Positions 10,831 to 17,323 of a stretch of 64,000 nt of DNA are shown one piece after another. The notes under the pieces were generated by a model. The model was given only the letters and a program-made list of their open reading frames with translations. It was not told where the DNA came from and searched no databases. Position 1 is the stretch's first letter; each line of letters begins with the position of its first letter. Source of the DNA: a virus; IMG/VR virus record IMGVR_UViG_3300039208_000165, positions 2,356 to 66,355 of that record; one strand, given 5' to 3'. The position numbers and the translations under genes are program-made.

Positions 10831-13800
10831 TTATGTTGCTGTGGCAGTAACGATTATGTTGTTAGTACTCTGCTGTCTTGTCATGTGGTGCCCGTTTCCG
10901 GACTTATCTTGTAGAACGGAGAGCGTATCTCCGGCCTCGCCTAGTCTGTACCAGGCAGCGATATTGGAATAAGAGGCCAAAGCTCGGAGATCCGTCTCCG
11001 AAAGGCCATTGTTCCAAATAGCATCGATGTCGGCGGGGCTGAGAACCTTATCCCAAACAGCCACGGAATCAATCTCAGCCTGCCAGTGATCAACAATATT
11101 GTTCTGCCATCTTCCGGCAGCAATGGTGAATTCCGACCAGTCCTTTCTGGTACCGAACAGGGCCGGGGACTGAGCATTTAATGTACCATCCTGATAACTT
11201 CTAAGAACCCCGTCTGACTCATCCCAGGTAACAATCCAATTATACCACACAGTGGAGGTTGTGTCAGAAATAGAATTCAAATCTGCAGTAAACGCAGAAC
11301 CTCCAGTGTTAGCTACAGTGGCGTTAGTGCGATTATTAAAAGAGCTTGATAGTTTCTTAATGCGGAAAGACGGCTCGTTGCCTGCAGTCTGTGAAGAATT
11401 CCAAGCAGCGACTGGAATGTCAAATCCAGTACTGCCTACCCGACACGTAACCATGACGGAGAAGGAGCCAGTACCGGTAATAGGAACACCATTGTCACCA
11501 GTCGTAGTCCTGAAGTAAGTATTAGAAGAGGTAAACTCCATAGAAACATTGTTCCGCACAGGAATTACCTCAACGATAGCGTCATTCTGATCAACAGGAC
11601 CATTAATTACATCACCAGACTCTCCCTTACCGGACCGATCGGCAATAATTGGGTAGGATTCCTGGACGACAGTCTCATCGAAATCCCACCAAAGCTCTAG
11701 ATCAGTCGGGGAATAGTCTGTACCGGCCACTAGGAGGTCAGAATAACCCAGACCATAACTGAAAATCTCAGTTACCTCGTCGTCGGTGAGCGCGCGGCTC
11801 CAAATAGCCGTATCTTCATAGTTACCCCGTCCCCAGCCCCCAGACGGAGTGTCGGTGGATATGGTACCAATGTTAAAATCAGGATCCCCAGTACCGATTG
11901 TCACACCTGGGGTGGACTGGCCCTGTAGAACACCATTGATGTAAAACTTCAGAGTGGTACCGTCGAAACTGCCTACTAAGTGCAACCATTGCAGATTAGA
12001 AGTAAGCGTAGCGGAGTTGATGAAGTAAGAGTTCCATTGATTGAACCAGAATCTAATCTGGTTTGAATTTAACCAATAGAAACCAAACCCATCTTCCCAC
12101 GCACTGTAACTACCAGAGGCCCCTGCTATACTCTCGTAAAGATCTGGAGTGTGACCTCTCTGAGGCCGGAACCAAACAGAGACTGTAAATTCCGTACTGG
12201 CTGCAGAAATTCCTAAATCGCTGATAGGAGGGCCGTTCACATACTCCATCTCAGAATCGCTGCCCGTATTTAAAGCCAATCCGAATTCGTTATTGAAGAC
12301 CTGGAGAGCCGCAGAGAAATCATTGAACTTCCAGACCTTAGGAATAGTACTATTCAGGTCCCCATAACCACCAGTAGCGTTAGTGTACCCATACAGACTG
12401 CTGTCTTCCTGGAAACCGGACAGGGTTCCGGCCAAAGAAGAAGTCAAACTCCCTGTTGGGAAAATGAATGCCCGCAAATCTTCCCGAACAGCGTCGGATC
12501 CTGTAATGGAAGCTGGAAAATCTACAGGGAATACTCTGTTAACGAGTCCCGGCAAATCTCCGAAGGTTTCCTGAACAGATAGGGAAGCGGGAAGATTAAC
12601 CACCGCGCCTCGAACATTGAGTAAAGCGCGCATATCAGATTCCCCAGAAAGACCAATCACCGAAGCGATGCAGGCGCGCACCGCCTCGTCCAGGGAAGCG
12701 AAACCTTTAAGATTACCGATCCTACAAACGCGGCCTGCGGCGAAGTCTCCAAATAGTCCCGCAGCAATCTCCCGGAAGGATCTAATATTGAGCTTCCAGT
12801 CCTCTGTGCCGTCTCTAATGAAAGCCTCATCAGTACCATTGACGTAGAAATAATCAAGGAGCTGACCTTCCATCTGGAGGCGAATCTCCTGAACGTCAAA
12901 CTCACGGGTCGGTCTGAGTTCTACCGCATCAATCCTACTCACGGTGGGCTCAAAGCGTGGGAGCGGAATGGTAGGGTTGATGTAGGCAGAGAGATCAATG
13001 TTGGGGAATCCGGCTTCGATATATGCACCCAGATTCAATCCACGGAACGGGGAGAAGTTAACAGGGATAGTATCTGTGGTCAAGAACTTAACTGGTCGAT
13101 CGGCTCTAGGAGTAAAATTAACCGTAATAGAGTCCATCGTGTAGAAAATGTTGTCCGGGTTGATAGAAGCGGATAGGTTAGCCTCGATGAAAGACTGGAT
13201 GAAACCGCCCACATCCTTAGCGTGTTGAGCCTTAGCGTAAGCCGGAAGGAGAATATTAGCAGACCCGCCACCGCAAGCAGGATTACCAATTGTTGCTCTA
13301 AGATCAAAGGCGTTAAGCGTGCTAATGGTCAGAATAGCGGTAACAAAAGTCTCGGCTGCTCGGATAAACGCGCCCAGATCCGTACTCCCCGCCAAGGAAA
13401 GAATCACAGCACCTAGGTTCTTTAGATTCTCATTAGACTCAATACTGGCAGGGATATCTACCGAGTGTACTGGCTGGAATATAGCTGGAAGGAACGCATC
13501 GTTAACTCCCAAATCCCAAACATTGATGGCCGCAGGAATAGTAGTAGCTGAAAGGAAATTAATGGCTGCAGGTAGATCAAATTCTACCTCAAACTCCTTA
13601 CCGATAGTAGCTTTGAGGTCCGTATCTCCCGGCTGCAAGACATTCATCAATCCCACAAGATTGGTGTGATCACTATCTCCGGAGCCGACAGAAGCAATCA
13701 TGTCGTTGGGTCCGGGGTATTGGGCAGAAACAATGGCGTTCAGCAGCTCTTCCATCCTAGAAGACAACGCGGCTGGAAGATCCTTGTGGCTGGAAGCAAA

Positions 13801-14493
13801 ACCCTTGATGTTGGCAAACAGCTTGGGCTCACGAATACCAAGCATCTCTCCCGAAAGATCCTTGAACTGGAAACCACGGATAGAACCTGGAAGGTCGTTG
13901 AAGAATACAGGGACAAGGTATGCAGGGAGATCGTGTGGGGACCAGATGATTGCGCCGAGGTCAGGAGCATACTGGGAGAAGACCGAAGCGGGAAGGTTCG
14001 GGGCAGCAATACCAAGAATCTCTCCTCCCAAGTCCTCCTGAACAATCTGCAAGATAGCTGGCAGATCCAATCGAGCCAACTCACCAAAGATGTAAGCAGG
14101 GAGATCCTTCTCGAAGAGGCCGAAGACAATAGCTCCCAGATCGGGGAGGAAGGCCACCGGGAAAGTACATGCAGGCATATCGAAAGCGTTCTGAACACGC
14201 AGCAAAGCCTCAAGGTCCTGCTGACCTACCTGCATAACCCGCATGACCGCTTTCAGGTCAGGAAAGTTATAACAAATGGGCGGCTTACGTACAATACCTT
14301 CGATGATATTGAAGTCAGAAATGAAAGAGACCCCGTCCTGGTTCGCAGGAAATCTGGGGTCTCCGCCCACCACGGCCTGAATGTGAGGACCAGTATGGGC
14401 CTGGATGATAGATTTGATAATCCCACCACGGTCCTCACGGCCGGCATTATATAGGGCACTATTGTATGTATTCTGGTTATAGTTGCCGGCCAA
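10831..14493 (-). CDS. Virion fibre-like protein: D-L-x-A repeat shaft + two C-terminal LamG/ConA-like domains (1220 aa)
   Basis: TTG start after GGAG. About 35-40 short [DN]L[PG]A.[hydrophobic] repeats in the N-terminal ~740 aa, then two LamG-like domains (WLHLVGSFDGTTLKFYINGVLQ; WYNWIVTWD...YQDG; D.SGNG motifs). Confidence 0.75.
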   Translation of the reverse strand: MAGNYNQNTYNSALYNAGREDRGGIIKSIIQAHTGPHIQAVVGGDPRFPANQDGVSFISDFNIIEGIVRKPPICYNFPDLKAVMRVMQVGQQDLEALLRVQNAFDMPACTFPVAFLPDLGAIVFGLFEKDLPAYIFGELARLDLPAILQIVQEDLGGEILGIAAPNLPASVFSQYAPDLGAIIWSPHDLPAYLVPVFFNDLPGSIRGFQFKDLSGEMLGIREPKLFANIKGFASSHKDLPAALSSRMEELLNAIVSAQYPGPNDMIASVGSGDSDHTNLVGLMNVLQPGDTDLKATIGKEFEVEFDLPAAINFLSATTIPAAINVWDLGVNDAFLPAIFQPVHSVDIPASIESNENLKNLGAVILSLAGSTDLGAFIRAAETFVTAILTISTLNAFDLRATIGNPACGGGSANILLPAYAKAQHAKDVGGFIQSFIEANLSASINPDNIFYTMDSITVNFTPRADRPVKFLTTDTIPVNFSPFRGLNLGAYIEAGFPNIDLSAYINPTIPLPRFEPTVSRIDAVELRPTREFDVQEIRLQMEGQLLDYFYVNGTDEAFIRDGTEDWKLNIRSFREIAAGLFGDFAAGRVCRIGNLKGFASLDEAVRACIASVIGLSGESDMRALLNVRGAVVNLPASLSVQETFGDLPGLVNRVFPVDFPASITGSDAVREDLRAFIFPTGSLTSSLAGTLSGFQEDSSLYGYTNATGGYGDLNSTIPKVWKFNDFSAALQVFNNEFGLALNTGSDSEMEYVNGPPISDLGISAASTEFTVSVWFRPQRGHTPDLYESIAGASGSYSAWEDGFGFYWLNSNQIRFWFNQWNSYFINSATLTSNLQWLHLVGSFDGTTLKFYINGVLQGQSTPGVTIGTGDPDFNIGTISTDTPSGGWGRGNYEDTAIWSRALTDDEVTEIFSYGLGYSDLLVAGTDYSPTDLELWWDFDETVVQESYPIIADRSGKGESGDVINGPVDQNDAIVEVIPVRNNVSMEFTSSNTYFRTTTGDNGVPITGTGSFSVMVTCRVGSTGFDIPVAAWNSSQTAGNEPSFRIKKLSSSFNNRTNATVANTGGSAFTADLNSISDTTSTVWYNWIVTWDESDGVLRSYQDGTLNAQSPALFGTRKDWSEFTIAAGRWQNNIVDHWQAEIDSVAVWDKVLSPADIDAIWNNGLSETDLRALASYSNIAAWYRLGEAGDTLSVLQDKSGNGHHMTRQQSTNNIIVTATAT

Positions 14494-14494
14494 T

Positions 14495-14983
14495 TTAGTC
14501 TCCTGGTGTGATTAGTTGCTTTTCTAAATACCGTACAGCCCGCTCCAACAGGCTTGGGCTGTCTTGGAAATGCCCGAGACCTATATTACAAGTTCTGCAC
14601 AGAAGTCCTCTTACCTCCTGAGTGTCGTGATCGTGATCCACGTGAAGATCGGGGTAATTATCACCGCAAATTGCGCACTTTCCCGACTGTTTCTTGTACA
14701 TGGTCTCGTAATCTTCTAAGGTTATACCGTACCGAGTACGCAAAGCGGCGGTTTTGATTTTATCTGGATTAGATTTTGACCATTCTCTCTTGTATTCGTT
14801 CAGTCTGACACGATTATTCTTAGAGTATTCTCTACTCCTGCACCTCTCTCGCTCCAAGTTCTTCTTGTACCAGTTACGATTGTTACTACGGGCACAGGTT
14901 AAGCACTTCCTACGACCGTCAGGGTAGGTATAAGTATTATCCTCAGTAAACTCATGTCCTCTTCTACAGTGTGTCTTCTTCAT
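14495..14983 (-). CDS. Free-standing homing-type endonuclease (endonuclease VII/HNH family)
   Basis: N-terminal KTHCRRGHEFTEDNTY...CLTC motif; C-terminal YGIT..DY..M...Q.G.CAIC...LHVDHDH....RGLLC..CN.GLG.F.D (Endo VII-type). Inserted among structural genes. Confidence 0.88.
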   Translation of the reverse strand: MKKTHCRRGHEFTEDNTYTYPDGRRKCLTCARSNNRNWYKKNLERERCRSREYSKNNRVRLNEYKREWSKSNPDKIKTAALRTRYGITLEDYETMYKKQSGKCAICGDNYPDLHVDHDHDTQEVRGLLCRTCNIGLGHFQDSPSLLERAVRYLEKQLITPGD

Positions 14984-14985
14984 CT

Positions 14986-15471
14986 CTAATCACCGGGAGT
15001 AATAACGGAGAATTGTGGTAGTACTGGATAAACTCTCCTATTTTTCTCCGGGAACACACGCTCTCCTGCTCCAGAGAACACGACGGGGAATAGTCTTTGG
15101 TTGATATAAGTAGGTGGTACATAGGGGATCTCGCCTGCGCCCGCGCCGGGATAGAAATTCATGATCACAATGCCGCTGGTAGTGACCGGAGTACTTATAA
15201 TCTCAGTGTCGTCTTCGAAAGAAGGAACAAATCCTGCAGTTACTTCGAAGATAACCTCATTAAAATTAGTCAATAAGATACCAGAAGCGGGGGTATAAAG
15301 ACTGAGATCATTCATGATGAAGGGGATGTCGGAAGTTCGAACCGCAGAGCCTTCCGTAAACTCGGTCAGGGTTGCGACAACAGTTCCCCAATCGGAAGTA
15401 ACGGGGTCAAAGCTATTCGACCCGGAAACAATTACAATCCCGCTTGTGGTTGGCGGACTTTGACCAAACAC
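14986..15471 (-). CDS. Hypothetical virion protein (161 aa)
   Basis: GTG start; internal TTSGIVI duplication; five S-G motifs; ends ITPGD like the next gene. Confidence 0.7.
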   Translation of the reverse strand: MFGQSPPTTSGIVIVSGSNSFDPVTSDWGTVVATLTEFTEGSAVRTSDIPFIMNDLSLYTPASGILLTNFNEVIFEVTAGFVPSFEDDTEIISTPVTTSGIVIMNFYPGAGAGEIPYVPPTYINQRLFPVVFSGAGERVFPEKNRRVYPVLPQFSVITPGD

Positions 15472-15475
15472 GTCT

Positions 15476-16366
15476 TTAGTTCTTCCTTAAGAATAAGGTA
15501 GTAGAGCCTCCAAAAACGGCAAACTCCTGACCAGTGCCAGAAACTACAGCGGTCCCAAAAGGCGGCAATCCGGCGTTCTGATTGGCCCCTGCCCAAACAT
15601 GCCTAATCTGACCAATAACACCCTTACGAACAGGTGAAGCATCGTCTACTGTCCACAGTATGGGATTGGCTGTAAAAATAGCCTCCTGATTACCCAAACC
15701 CTGTCGAGGCTCCTGGGCACTAGTGAGGGCAATAGTCACCGTATCACCATCGGAAGATGTGGTAATAGTCTCCGGGGGATTATTCCCTACAATACCTAGA
15801 GCATTGTTTGAGACCGGGGTCATAGAGCCCGGGGAAAAAACAATAGCACCGTAGGGTTCCAATTCATCATCTAGATACTTATGAATCCTTCCTAGAAAAA
15901 CTACAGGAGTTACACTACCACTATGGTTATTTACCAACGCTACCTGATCCTTGTCCGCAGCGATCCAAAGCCTATTGTAACCATCGGCATCAACAGAGAA
16001 GGTCCTAAGTTGTGAAAGAGTGGTAGTGTTAGGGTTCTTAACTCCAGAAGCGGGAACTGTGTGAGAAACATTGTCGTAAGCCCCAGAAACTTGCATACCC
16101 ACGGTGGCAGCGTTCTGAGCAGCACTATTGCCCGAAGTCAGAGTGACATAAATATTAGGGCTGGTTCCCGATTCACCGCCCTCGTTGCGAAGTACAATCT
16201 TATGGGTGTTAGCCAAAACAGAGCTGCCTGCTTGAGATCTACGATCATCGTCGATCACCCAGCCAGCAGCCACCATCGTATCGGCCACAGCATCTAACAC
16301 GCTGGAGGCCCCAACGATCCCCGCATTCCCTCCTGAAATTGTAACTTCATTGTAACTAAAAACCAT
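15476..16366 (-). CDS. Virion structural protein, paralog of 16376-17323
   Basis: 296 aa; shares GW...DDR..Q.G, TLTSG and G..R..W.G blocks with the upstream gene. Confidence 0.75.
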   Translation of the reverse strand: MVFSYNEVTISGGNAGIVGASSVLDAVADTMVAAGWVIDDDRRSQAGSSVLANTHKIVLRNEGGESGTSPNIYVTLTSGNSAAQNAATVGMQVSGAYDNVSHTVPASGVKNPNTTTLSQLRTFSVDADGYNRLWIAADKDQVALVNNHSGSVTPVVFLGRIHKYLDDELEPYGAIVFSPGSMTPVSNNALGIVGNNPPETITTSSDGDTVTIALTSAQEPRQGLGNQEAIFTANPILWTVDDASPVRKGVIGQIRHVWAGANQNAGLPPFGTAVVSGTGQEFAVFGGSTTLFLRKN

Positions 16367-16375
16367 TTCTTCCTC

Positions 16376-17323
16376 CTAAGATTTTCTAACGATGAGACTG
16401 GGAGTGGTACTTGTGGACGCATGGGTGAAAGTCCTATATGTCTGCTCTCCAAAAGTACCAGAAGCTGTTAAAATAGACAGGTTAAGAAGGCGAGTAGCGT
16501 CTGCCCCCAACCAAGCACCACGTACCATGCCAGCAGCGCCCTTCCAGCCGGGAGACGTGGCGTCGTTATAGACTACCTGCATCGGGTATCCAAAGAAAAT
16601 AGAATCCACTGAATTAATACTGTAAGGCTGAACACCGTCCGCATATGACTGAGGGCTGGTCGATAGAACAGTAGTTTCGCTATTGTTAACAAACCCCCGG
16701 GGAGGCTGACCTCCGATAGAGCGGGGCGAGACCGTTCCCGCGGTGACAATGCCGGTACCGTTAGCTCCATTAATAAGCATGGGATAGGGATTTTCTTCCA
16801 CGGACATGAAGGAATCAAATCTACCAAAAGAAATGCTATCCATGGTCACAGAAGAGTTATTGGTGATCTCTCGGCGAGTAACTAAGTGAACCATCTCTGA
16901 ATCTCCCGCCATGTAAATCTCTGTGTTATCATCCTGGGATCTAACATTCAAAGAGGTGATAGTGTTAGGCATAGTGGTAGCCGCGCCTGTAGTAGTTCGG
17001 GCCCCACTAGCTGGTATACTATTAGTCCCCACATCATAAGCTGTATGGGCAGTAACTCCAAGAAGATTGCTATTAACCGTAGCAGAAGTTCCAGAGGTAA
17101 GGGTCATAAAGAAGGTGGGATATTCCCCGTTCTCCCCATTAGAAGAAAATACATACTTGTGAGTAGTCTCGATATTAGAGGACCCGGGCTGGCTAGACCT
17201 ATCGTCGACTAAAGTCCAACCGCAATTCTGCATGAAAGTAGAAATCTGCTCTAACGCCCCAGACACCCCCTCCACACCTTCGGCGGTTCCGTCAACCTTA
17301 ACCTCACTATACTGATAAACCAT
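16376..17323 (-). CDS. Virion structural protein, paralog of 15476-16366
   Basis: 315 aa; the start MVYQYSEV resembles MVFSYNEV, and the same blocks are conserved. Confidence 0.75.
   Translation of the reverse strand: MVYQYSEVKVDGTAEGVEGVSGALEQISTFMQNCGWTLVDDRSSQPGSSNIETTHKYVFSSNGENGEYPTFFMTLTSGTSATVNSNLLGVTAHTAYDVGTNSIPASGARTTTGAATTMPNTITSLNVRSQDDNTEIYMAGDSEMVHLVTRREITNNSSVTMDSISFGRFDSFMSVEENPYPMLINGANGTGIVTAGTVSPRSIGGQPPRGFVNNSETTVLSTSPQSYADGVQPYSINSVDSIFFGYPMQVVYNDATSPGWKGAAGMVRGAWLGADATRLLNLSILTASGTFGEQTYRTFTHASTSTTPSLIVRKS

Follow-up and report, generated by a model that had tools for sequence, protein, structure and literature searches.

The 64,000-nucleotide stretch of viral DNA analysed here (positions 2,356 to 66,355 of the IMG/VR virus record IMGVR_UViG_3300039208_000165, hereafter the window) carries a small endonuclease gene inside the 3' end of a conserved gene encoding a 161-amino-acid (aa) protein, directly ahead of a gene encoding a 1220-aa fibre-like protein. 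The 162-aa open reading frame (ORF) of the endonuclease is preceded by a substitute end that completes the 161-aa gene, while the native end of that gene is reused downstream. With a probability of about 75%, this locus is interpreted as a free-standing homing endonuclease cassette of the DHHRN type, equipped with a replacement gene end and inserted within the end of the 161-aa gene. At the level of sequence comparison, presence/absence polymorphism among relatives, an intact nuclease and the recurrence of the same design elsewhere make a mobile unit of the homing type well supported. The window is part of a 95,333-base record of an uncultured phage, judged to be ~32% complete.

The duplicated gene end was visible in the window itself. 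On the minus strand, the 161-aa ORF terminated in TCC GTT ATT ACT CCC GGT GAT TAG (FSVITPGD-stop), and the ATG of the endonuclease ORF was found two bases (AG) past this stop. The endonuclease ORF in turn terminated in CAA CTA ATC ACA CCA GGA GAC TAA (QLITPGD-stop), a single base (A) before the TTG start of the 1220-aa ORF. The two ITPGD-stop copies differed in 5/5 sense codons and in the stop codon, at the third position only, which confirmed to the base what the initial annotation had described for the two gene ends. Based on the amino-acid composition of the window, an identical five-residue tail on two unrelated ORFs has a probability of ~1e-6 per pair. Given the same peptide, the probability that 6/6 codons differ is ~0.05 based on the codon usage of the window. 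The peptide repeat is far above chance, whereas the difference in every codon is just marginally above independent codon choice.

Relatives of the locus were obtained from alignment-based scans of viral contigs; scanning with a single protein recovered none, and no match to the region turned up when 50,697 phage records were searched by blastn. Three lineages were occupied by the endonuclease gene: the window together with L001 (a contig of metagenome JGI 3300038492, 99% identical to the window, which breaks off after 48 bases of the endonuclease gene), L002 (60% identity to the window for the 161-aa homologue and 62% for the endonuclease), and L007 together with L010 (161-aa homologue ~49% and endonuclease 77% identical). 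In all three, the endonuclease frame entered ...(L/I)TPGD and ended in CCA GGA GAC TAA right before the fibre start, and the upstream copies read ACT CCC GGT GAT TAG in the window, ACG CCT GGT GAT TAG in L002 and ACG CCA GGC GAT TAA in L007. The glycine codon of the upstream copy was GGT or GGC in 3/3 occupied lineages, compared to GGA in 17/17 endonuclease-free gene ends (Fisher probability 1/1140, treating the three occupied lineages as independent). These 17 loci (L003, L004, L009, L011, L013-L024 and L110) all ended in GGA GA(C/T) TA(A/G) before the fibre gene, and none possessed the ending GGTGATTAG, which the initial annotation had considered incompatible with its proposal. In endonuclease-free relatives the fibre gene was the direct neighbour of the 161-aa gene, with 1-11 bases from stop to start (28 in L025). 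The nearest relative of the window 161-aa protein (P0002, 63%) was itself endonuclease-free, with a 1-base gap to the fibre gene, so the presence of the endonuclease is patchy. The same site was occupied in L007 and empty in L011 and L009, and it was empty in the P0002 contig and occupied in L002. Such a patchy distribution requires repeated gain or exact loss.

An occupied and an empty site could be compared between the sister loci L007 and L011, which were ~90% identical in 980 bases of upstream and 1,200 bases of downstream sequence, and whose fibre N-termini shared 96% protein identity with a synonymous divergence (dS) of 0.36. The empty site of L011 read ...CAA TTC TCG ATA ATC ACA CCA GGA GAC TAA A TTG GCC GGC, i.e. 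the ATCACACCAGGAGACTAA-A-TTG GCC GGC that had been predicted for an uninvaded genome. Its 20 bases TAATCACACCAGGAGACTAA, together with the same fibre start, followed the endonuclease in both L007 and the window (20/20 identical), and L009 showed one wobble difference from this 20-base site (ACC for ACA). The upstream copy of L007 (...TTT TCC GTT ATT ACG CCA GGC GAT TAA), in contrast, differed from L011 at 7/23 of the last bases, against a background of ~10% (binomial ~0.004-0.015), with differences at 7/9 third positions, some of them outside the Shine-Dalgarno element. The distal copy was therefore nearer to the uninvaded relative than the proximal one. At the sites differing between L007 and L011 within the last 36 bases, L007 agreed with the window 5:1, compared to 30:35 elsewhere upstream, and it shared 5/8 of the clustered differing states with the window (over only ~25-37 bases). 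A substitute end travelling with the endonuclease would give such agreement, which suggests that the last 25-37 bases of the gene arrived with the endonuclease rather than through on-site duplication and divergence.

The shared tail is specific to its context: it is a native feature of the 161-aa family but not of the endonucleases. The alignment of 64 metagenome homologues of the 161-aa protein showed a variable middle and two conserved ends, with a C-terminus of the form ...PVLPQFSxxTPGD-stop in which P159 and G160 were invariant and T158 and D161 were present in at least 90% of the sequences. Among 111 endonuclease homologues, the TPGD tail was found in only two, the window protein and P0066, which derives from the same locus in L007. 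The remaining 109 stopped soon after a conserved ...YL, with residues unrelated to TPGD, which ruled out TPGD as a functional tail of the endonuclease family. Homologues ending in ITPGD whatever their context, the other finding that the initial annotation had regarded as contrary to its proposal, were thus not encountered. Together with the empty site of L011, the native character of TPGD in the 161-aa family supports the original suggestion that the element inserted five codons before a stop and became fused to the original gene end.

The 162-aa protein matched the Pfam family Endonuclease_7 (PF02945; 1.6e-25, 89 bits for a cut-off of 23.6) over residues 81-155, as well as several PHROG endonuclease VII (Endo VII) families. 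It comprised an N-terminal Cys/His-rich region and a C-terminal Endo VII nuclease of the DHHRN type, whose domain ended at residue 155/162, seven residues before the stop. All catalytic residues were intact (CAIC 103-106, VDHDH 115-119, R125, CRTC 129-132 and N133). The pattern CX2-4C / DHDH / R / CX2C / N defines the F-CphI/DHHRN family and is also seen in T4 Endo VII, and the nuclease motif is C-terminal in the endonuclease clade and N-terminal in resolvases (PMC6083498). Both the catalytic and zinc pattern and the C-terminal position of the motif place the window protein among the DHHRN endonucleases. The ratio of nonsynonymous to synonymous divergence (dN/dS) was ~0.05 between the window and L007, which indicates that the endonuclease is under purifying selection and has long been kept functional. 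No Rfam intron family was detected within 13500-16500. An intron- or intein-encoded endonuclease was rejected, as no Rfam intron was found and as the upstream gene is full length with its own stop, in a different frame from the endonuclease. This frame, relative to the 161-aa gene, was +2 in the window and L007 and +1 in L002; because this offset varies among lineages, the idea that read-through or frameshifting joins the 161-aa protein to the endonuclease was also discarded.

At related Endo VII loci in IMG/VR, several endonuclease ORFs also ended in a copy of the tail of the upstream gene (Table 1). At least 4/8 tail residues were in common in 3/42 unique pairs, compared to 0.14 expected from shuffled pairings (maximum of 2 in 2,000 shuffles). 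At one of these loci (L031), a second case unrelated to that of the window, a 204-aa Endo VII endonuclease was located at the 3' end of the major capsid gene of ~111-kb phages. The copy fused to this endonuclease read GCA TCC ACC AAC TAA and the working upstream copy GCG TCT ACA AAT TAA, all sense codons being different. The endonuclease-free relatives of this capsid gene ended in ...AAC-stop in 21/21 cases, and in AAT in 0/21. No coupled downstream gene was found at this capsid gene end, so release from a ribosome-binding-site constraint is not the reason for the difference there. These loci suggest that the same insertion design recurs with related endonucleases in other contexts.

Concerning translation, GGAGA was the sole Shine-Dalgarno-like element before the fibre start in all endonuclease-free relatives. 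In the window it is contained in the native end, which at present supplies the final residues and the stop codon of the endonuclease ORF. Because this end was kept in place, both GGAGA and the stop-next-to-start geometry before the fibre gene are as in uninvaded genomes. The endonuclease start was located 1-2 bases past the 161-aa stop in 3/3 occupied lineages, and the arrangement positions the endonuclease for translation by re-initiation after the 161-aa gene. GGTGAT, a sequence complementary to the 3' end of 16S rRNA, was found ahead of this start in the window and L002, and GGCGAT in L007. The proposal that each copy of the repeat provides the Shine-Dalgarno element of the next gene fits GGAGA before the fibre gene better than GGTGAT, which is not conserved, and re-initiation coupling, rather than GGTGAT, appears to be the more conserved feature at the endonuclease start. 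At the junctions, no sigma-70-like promoters and no terminator between genes were detected, nor was any stable RNA structure (z-scores of +1.5 and +0.9) or Rfam family. The fibre gene started with TTG in the window (14491-14493), L007, L009 and L011, and with ATG in L002 (L002:4965) and most distant relatives; the spacing from stop to fibre start was 0-1 base in the TTG group and L002, and 3-11 bases in distant relatives.

Under the cassette interpretation, the endonuclease gene is inserted five to six codons before the stop of the conserved 161-aa gene, as a unit made of substitute last codons with their own stop, a spacer of 1-2 bases and a stopless endonuclease ORF, the frame of which continues through the displaced native (I)TPGD codons to the native stop. 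As a consequence of this arrangement, the 161-aa protein retains its conserved C-terminus, and the earlier view that both the protein and the coupling to the fibre gene are preserved agrees with the intact C-terminus and the unchanged GGAGA and stop-start geometry. The enzyme would cut or nick alleles lacking the insert, at ...TCGATA/ATCACACCAGGAGACTAA... or close to it, and the whole unit, substitute end included, would then be copied from an invaded genome during repair. The different spelling of this end may prevent both renewed recognition of the invaded allele and recombination between the two copies that would remove the insert; in this way, recoding is inferred to give immunity or to stabilise the insert. 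A more specific version, in which the enzyme recognises the last 20-25 bases of the uninvaded gene, the wobble changes are the determinant of immunity and the whole forms a minimal "cut, replace and rescue" unit, is tentative, and the odds lean somewhat against it.

Several points weigh against the cassette interpretation. Immunity via recoding is purely inferred, and should the recognition site extend across the insertion point, immunity would follow from the insertion by itself. The probability of ~0.05 for all six codons differing is by itself not compelling, and release from the ribosome-binding-site constraint alone could yield a difference in every codon. In the window, the upstream copy uses the commonest codon for 4/5 sense codons (ATT, ACT, GGT and GAT), while the downstream copy is made of less-used ones (ATC, ACA, CCA, GGA and GAC). 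The cluster of differences between L007 and L011 is modestly unusual, since 5.8% of 33-base flank windows are as dense in differences as the L007 upstream copy, and its direction cannot be fixed without an intermediate outgroup. The likeness of the distal copy to the uninvaded relative is also weakened as a test, because the distal copy is held by the Shine-Dalgarno constraint as well. Finally, the endonucleases are as diverged as their flanks: nucleotide identity to the window gene was 74% for L007 and 61% for L002, similar to the flanks in both cases, with saturated synonymous sites in the former comparison, and the sliding identity between the window and L007 gave no sign of a recent endonuclease transfer. 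Long vertical residence with occasional loss fits these divergences equally well.

The strongest rival explanation builds on several of these points. It assumes a single ancient insertion with a short target-site duplication, after which the upstream copy, identical to the other at first but no longer needed as ribosome-binding site of the fibre gene, drifted to preferred codons, the endonuclease gene being inherited vertically and sometimes lost, and recoding having no role in immunity or mobility. The preferred codons of the upstream copy, the marginal significance of the L007-L011 mismatch cluster and the matching divergence of endonuclease and flanks at saturated dS are all compatible with it, and since the copy before the fibre gene must keep GGAGA, the conservation of this element is uninformative on history. 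However, L007 and L011 are recent sisters and yet differ at most third positions of the gene end, including outside the Shine-Dalgarno element, and five of the L007 gene-end states are common to the distant window. Moreover, reading L011 and L009 as losses needs an exact deletion between repeats that share only 5-base runs, and at L031, where no downstream gene is coupled, the working copy still has the AAT absent from all its endonuclease-free relatives. The sister-pair comparison and L031 thus argue against neutral relaxation as the whole story; it is an improbable explanation but a live rival.

One endonuclease-free locus may bear a trace of loss. L006 (L006:100-240) possessed an end of the occupied type (ACC CCT GGT GAT TAA), followed by an 89-base non-coding spacer and ...ACGGGAGATAGA ATG of the fibre gene. 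An endonuclease gene since lost may have left this spacer behind, but the similarity is not significant and this origin is not established: its best match to the 3' end of the window gene (CGG-ATTTAGAAAAG) was equalled by 17/500 shuffles, and there was none to L002.

Far less probable is an insertion of the endonuclease after the stop, in the 1-base gap, which would have imported a downstream gene end with its Shine-Dalgarno element and left the upstream copy as the native one. Fibre translation would be kept equally well, but the downstream copy matches the L011 empty site at 20/20 bases, including wobbles outside the Shine-Dalgarno element, whereas the L007 upstream copy differs from it at 4/18 bases (the I, T, G and D wobbles), or at 7/23 with the three preceding codons, and the L031 downstream copy has the codon state of 21/21 uninvaded relatives. 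Least probable of all is a Holliday-junction resolvase or other housekeeping nuclease that acquired the shared tail through an old local rearrangement: Pfam and PHROGs do name the family "recombination endonuclease VII" and no other Endo VII, HNH or HNH_3 gene was found in the 95-kb, ~32% complete record, but the gene is missing at the same site in sisters (L011 and L009 vs L007; the P0002 contig vs the window), its nuclease motif is C-terminal, the position found in the endonuclease clade and not in that of the resolvases (PMC6083498), and it lies within a virion-gene operon, not among replication genes. Absence from sister genomes and a C-terminal nuclease domain likewise set it apart from resolvases of the T4 gp49 type.

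Table 1. Features of the insertion locus in the window and tails shared between upstream gene and endonuclease at related loci.
Feature	Coordinates	Strand	Basis or genes concerned
161-aa gene, insertion target, virion/tail module	14986..15471	-	ORF, 64 homologues, alignment; full length
Replacement (recoded) gene end, ATT ACT CCC GGT GAT TAG	14986..15003	-	Completes the 161-aa protein, just before the endonuclease start
Free-standing endonuclease gene, 162 aa, no stop codon of its own	14495..14983	-	Pfam, PHROG, presence/absence among relatives
Catalytic and zinc motif CAIC ... HVDHDH ... R ... CRTC N, residues 103-133	14585..14677	-	Translation
Native 161-aa gene end, TA ATC ACA CCA GGA GAC TAA	14495..14514	-	Matches L011 empty site
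1220-aa fibre-like gene, TTG start	10831..14493	-	Laminin_G_3 / ConA-like lectin domains
Shared tail ASTN-stop	L031:2336-3010		Upstream gene and endonuclease
Shared tail DTL-stop	L035:2370-2953; also L036, L038		Upstream gene and endonuclease
Shared tail TNQ(V/I)V-stop	L044:2445-2836		Upstream gene and endonuclease
Shared tail IDY.P-stop	L102:2075-2767		Upstream gene and endonuclease

The 161-aa protein matched no Pfam or PHROG family, and its AlphaFold model (48 sequences) had a mean predicted local distance difference test (pLDDT) score of 48 and was unusable. A repeat was present within it, with PPTTSGIVIVSGSN close to the N-terminus and PVTTSGIVIMNFYPGAG around residues 95-111, and the middle of the family was hypervariable, with very different lengths. 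Between L009 and L011, the 161-aa genes were >90% identical at the 3' end and ~45% in the middle, with near-identical sequences downstream, and from this contrast the gene looks mosaic. Some members of the family (L005:3480-3540, L026 and L025:1225-1290) stopped early, in ...VIIP-stop or ...TIIP-stop with TAG, so TPGD is not universal in the family; in these members GAGG follows the stop, and the Shine-Dalgarno element is thus outside the coding sequence. The contigs of L001, L008 and L012 broke at the 3' end of the 161-aa gene or no more than ~50 bases from it, that of L008 terminating inside ...ACC CCA GG. Occupied and empty variants present together in the samples, or variable fibre genes, could account for such breaks.

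Among the neighbouring genes, the downstream 1220-aa protein possessed Laminin_G_3 lectin-like domains according to Pfam. The genes upstream of the 161-aa gene encoded unnamed virion-type proteins. Two of these, of 296 aa and 315 aa, are adjacent paralogues (window 15476-17323) with similar N-termini (MVFSYNEVTISGG... vs MVYQYSEVKVDGT...), just one of which had a weak match to a PHROG "structural protein" family. Just downstream of the fibre gene, L007 possessed a gene for a bacterial-type DNA polymerase III beta clamp. The endonuclease-free L110 was found on an 18-kb contig binned in a "Candidatus Altiarchaeales archaeon" metagenome-assembled genome, and this binning may be accidental.

If the more specific version, with the wobble changes as determinant of immunity, is true, the unit would give Endo VII-type endonucleases access to the ends of essential phage genes with no need of introns, inteins or ribosome tricks, the stranded native end would gain a role as endonuclease C-terminus and ribosome-binding site of the next gene, and L031, L035-38, L044 and L102 would mark a general, so far undescribed, mode of phage invasion by this endonuclease family. 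The natural pair of empty and occupied sites shows how a free-standing endonuclease gene can settle within a coding sequence and between two translationally coupled virion genes while harming neither, and it defines a candidate target site of ~30 bases around ...TCGATA/ATCACACCAGGAGACTAAATTGGCC.... When genomes are annotated, the same short peptide tail on an endonuclease and on the gene before it offers a signature of such an insertion and of the true boundary of the mobile unit.

A full-text literature search gave no description of the present arrangement in phages, which is not proof of its absence there. Its nearest counterparts are known from elsewhere. In fungal mitochondria, mobile ORFs (mORFs) form "gene hybrids" in atp6 of Allomyces macrogynus and in atp6, atp9, cox2 and nad3 of Glomus sp.; they carry a foreign C-terminal gene part and strand the native part downstream, sometimes in phase with the mORF, which then has no stop of its own (PMC3630166). 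As in these hybrids, the window endonuclease ORF lies in the 3' part of a gene, with a C-terminal coding part on both sides, of which the inserted copy completes the gene and the downstream native copy is nearer to the uninvaded relative, and no intron or intein is needed. Unlike in the fungal cases, a phage is the host, the nuclease belongs to the Endo VII/DHHRN type instead of LAGLIDADG or GIY-YIG, and the duplicated part spans 5-6 codons instead of tens of codons, which is too short for phylogeny to show that the inserted end is foreign. The displaced native end also stays alive here, as tail and stop of the endonuclease and as the ribosome-binding and coupling point of the next gene.

Among phage endonucleases, F-CphI of cyanophage S-PM2 is, as compared by motif, similar in being a small free-standing protein with the same catalytic and zinc motif in its C-terminal half, but it is encoded beside psbA and cuts at an intron insertion site, and its description mentions neither a duplicated nor a recoded gene end (PMC6083498). 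In T4, mobE (after nrdA), segC, segF, mobA and mobC overlap or abut their upstream genes, and like the window endonuclease they start at or next to the upstream stop without a clear ribosome-binding site of their own, an arrangement read as translational coupling that keeps endonuclease levels low; these genes sit between genes, and in the accessible part of that source their ends are not described as copies of the last codons of the upstream gene (PMC2988022). The MobA element of T4-like phages consists of mobA and the gene 60 bypass cassette in a topoisomerase gene (bioRxiv 10.1101/2022.08.31.505936). It shares with the window locus a free-standing phage endonuclease (of the HNH type for MobA), a cassette inserted into a coding sequence, a divergent insert-derived homologue of the target, and a means of preserving the function of the invaded gene and, presumably also in the window, of guarding it against renewed nicking. 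MobA, however, splits its gene and needs 50-nt ribosomal bypassing, whereas here the gene simply ends in a substitute copy, and protection in MobA was traced to the bypass insert and not to polymorphisms (bioRxiv 10.1101/2022.08.31.505936). The principle is therefore one that fungal mitochondria already show, with T4 MobA as a different form of it; the design itself is hardly described in phages, and the gain provided by this locus is a clean phage example together with a hint of generality, rather than a new principle.

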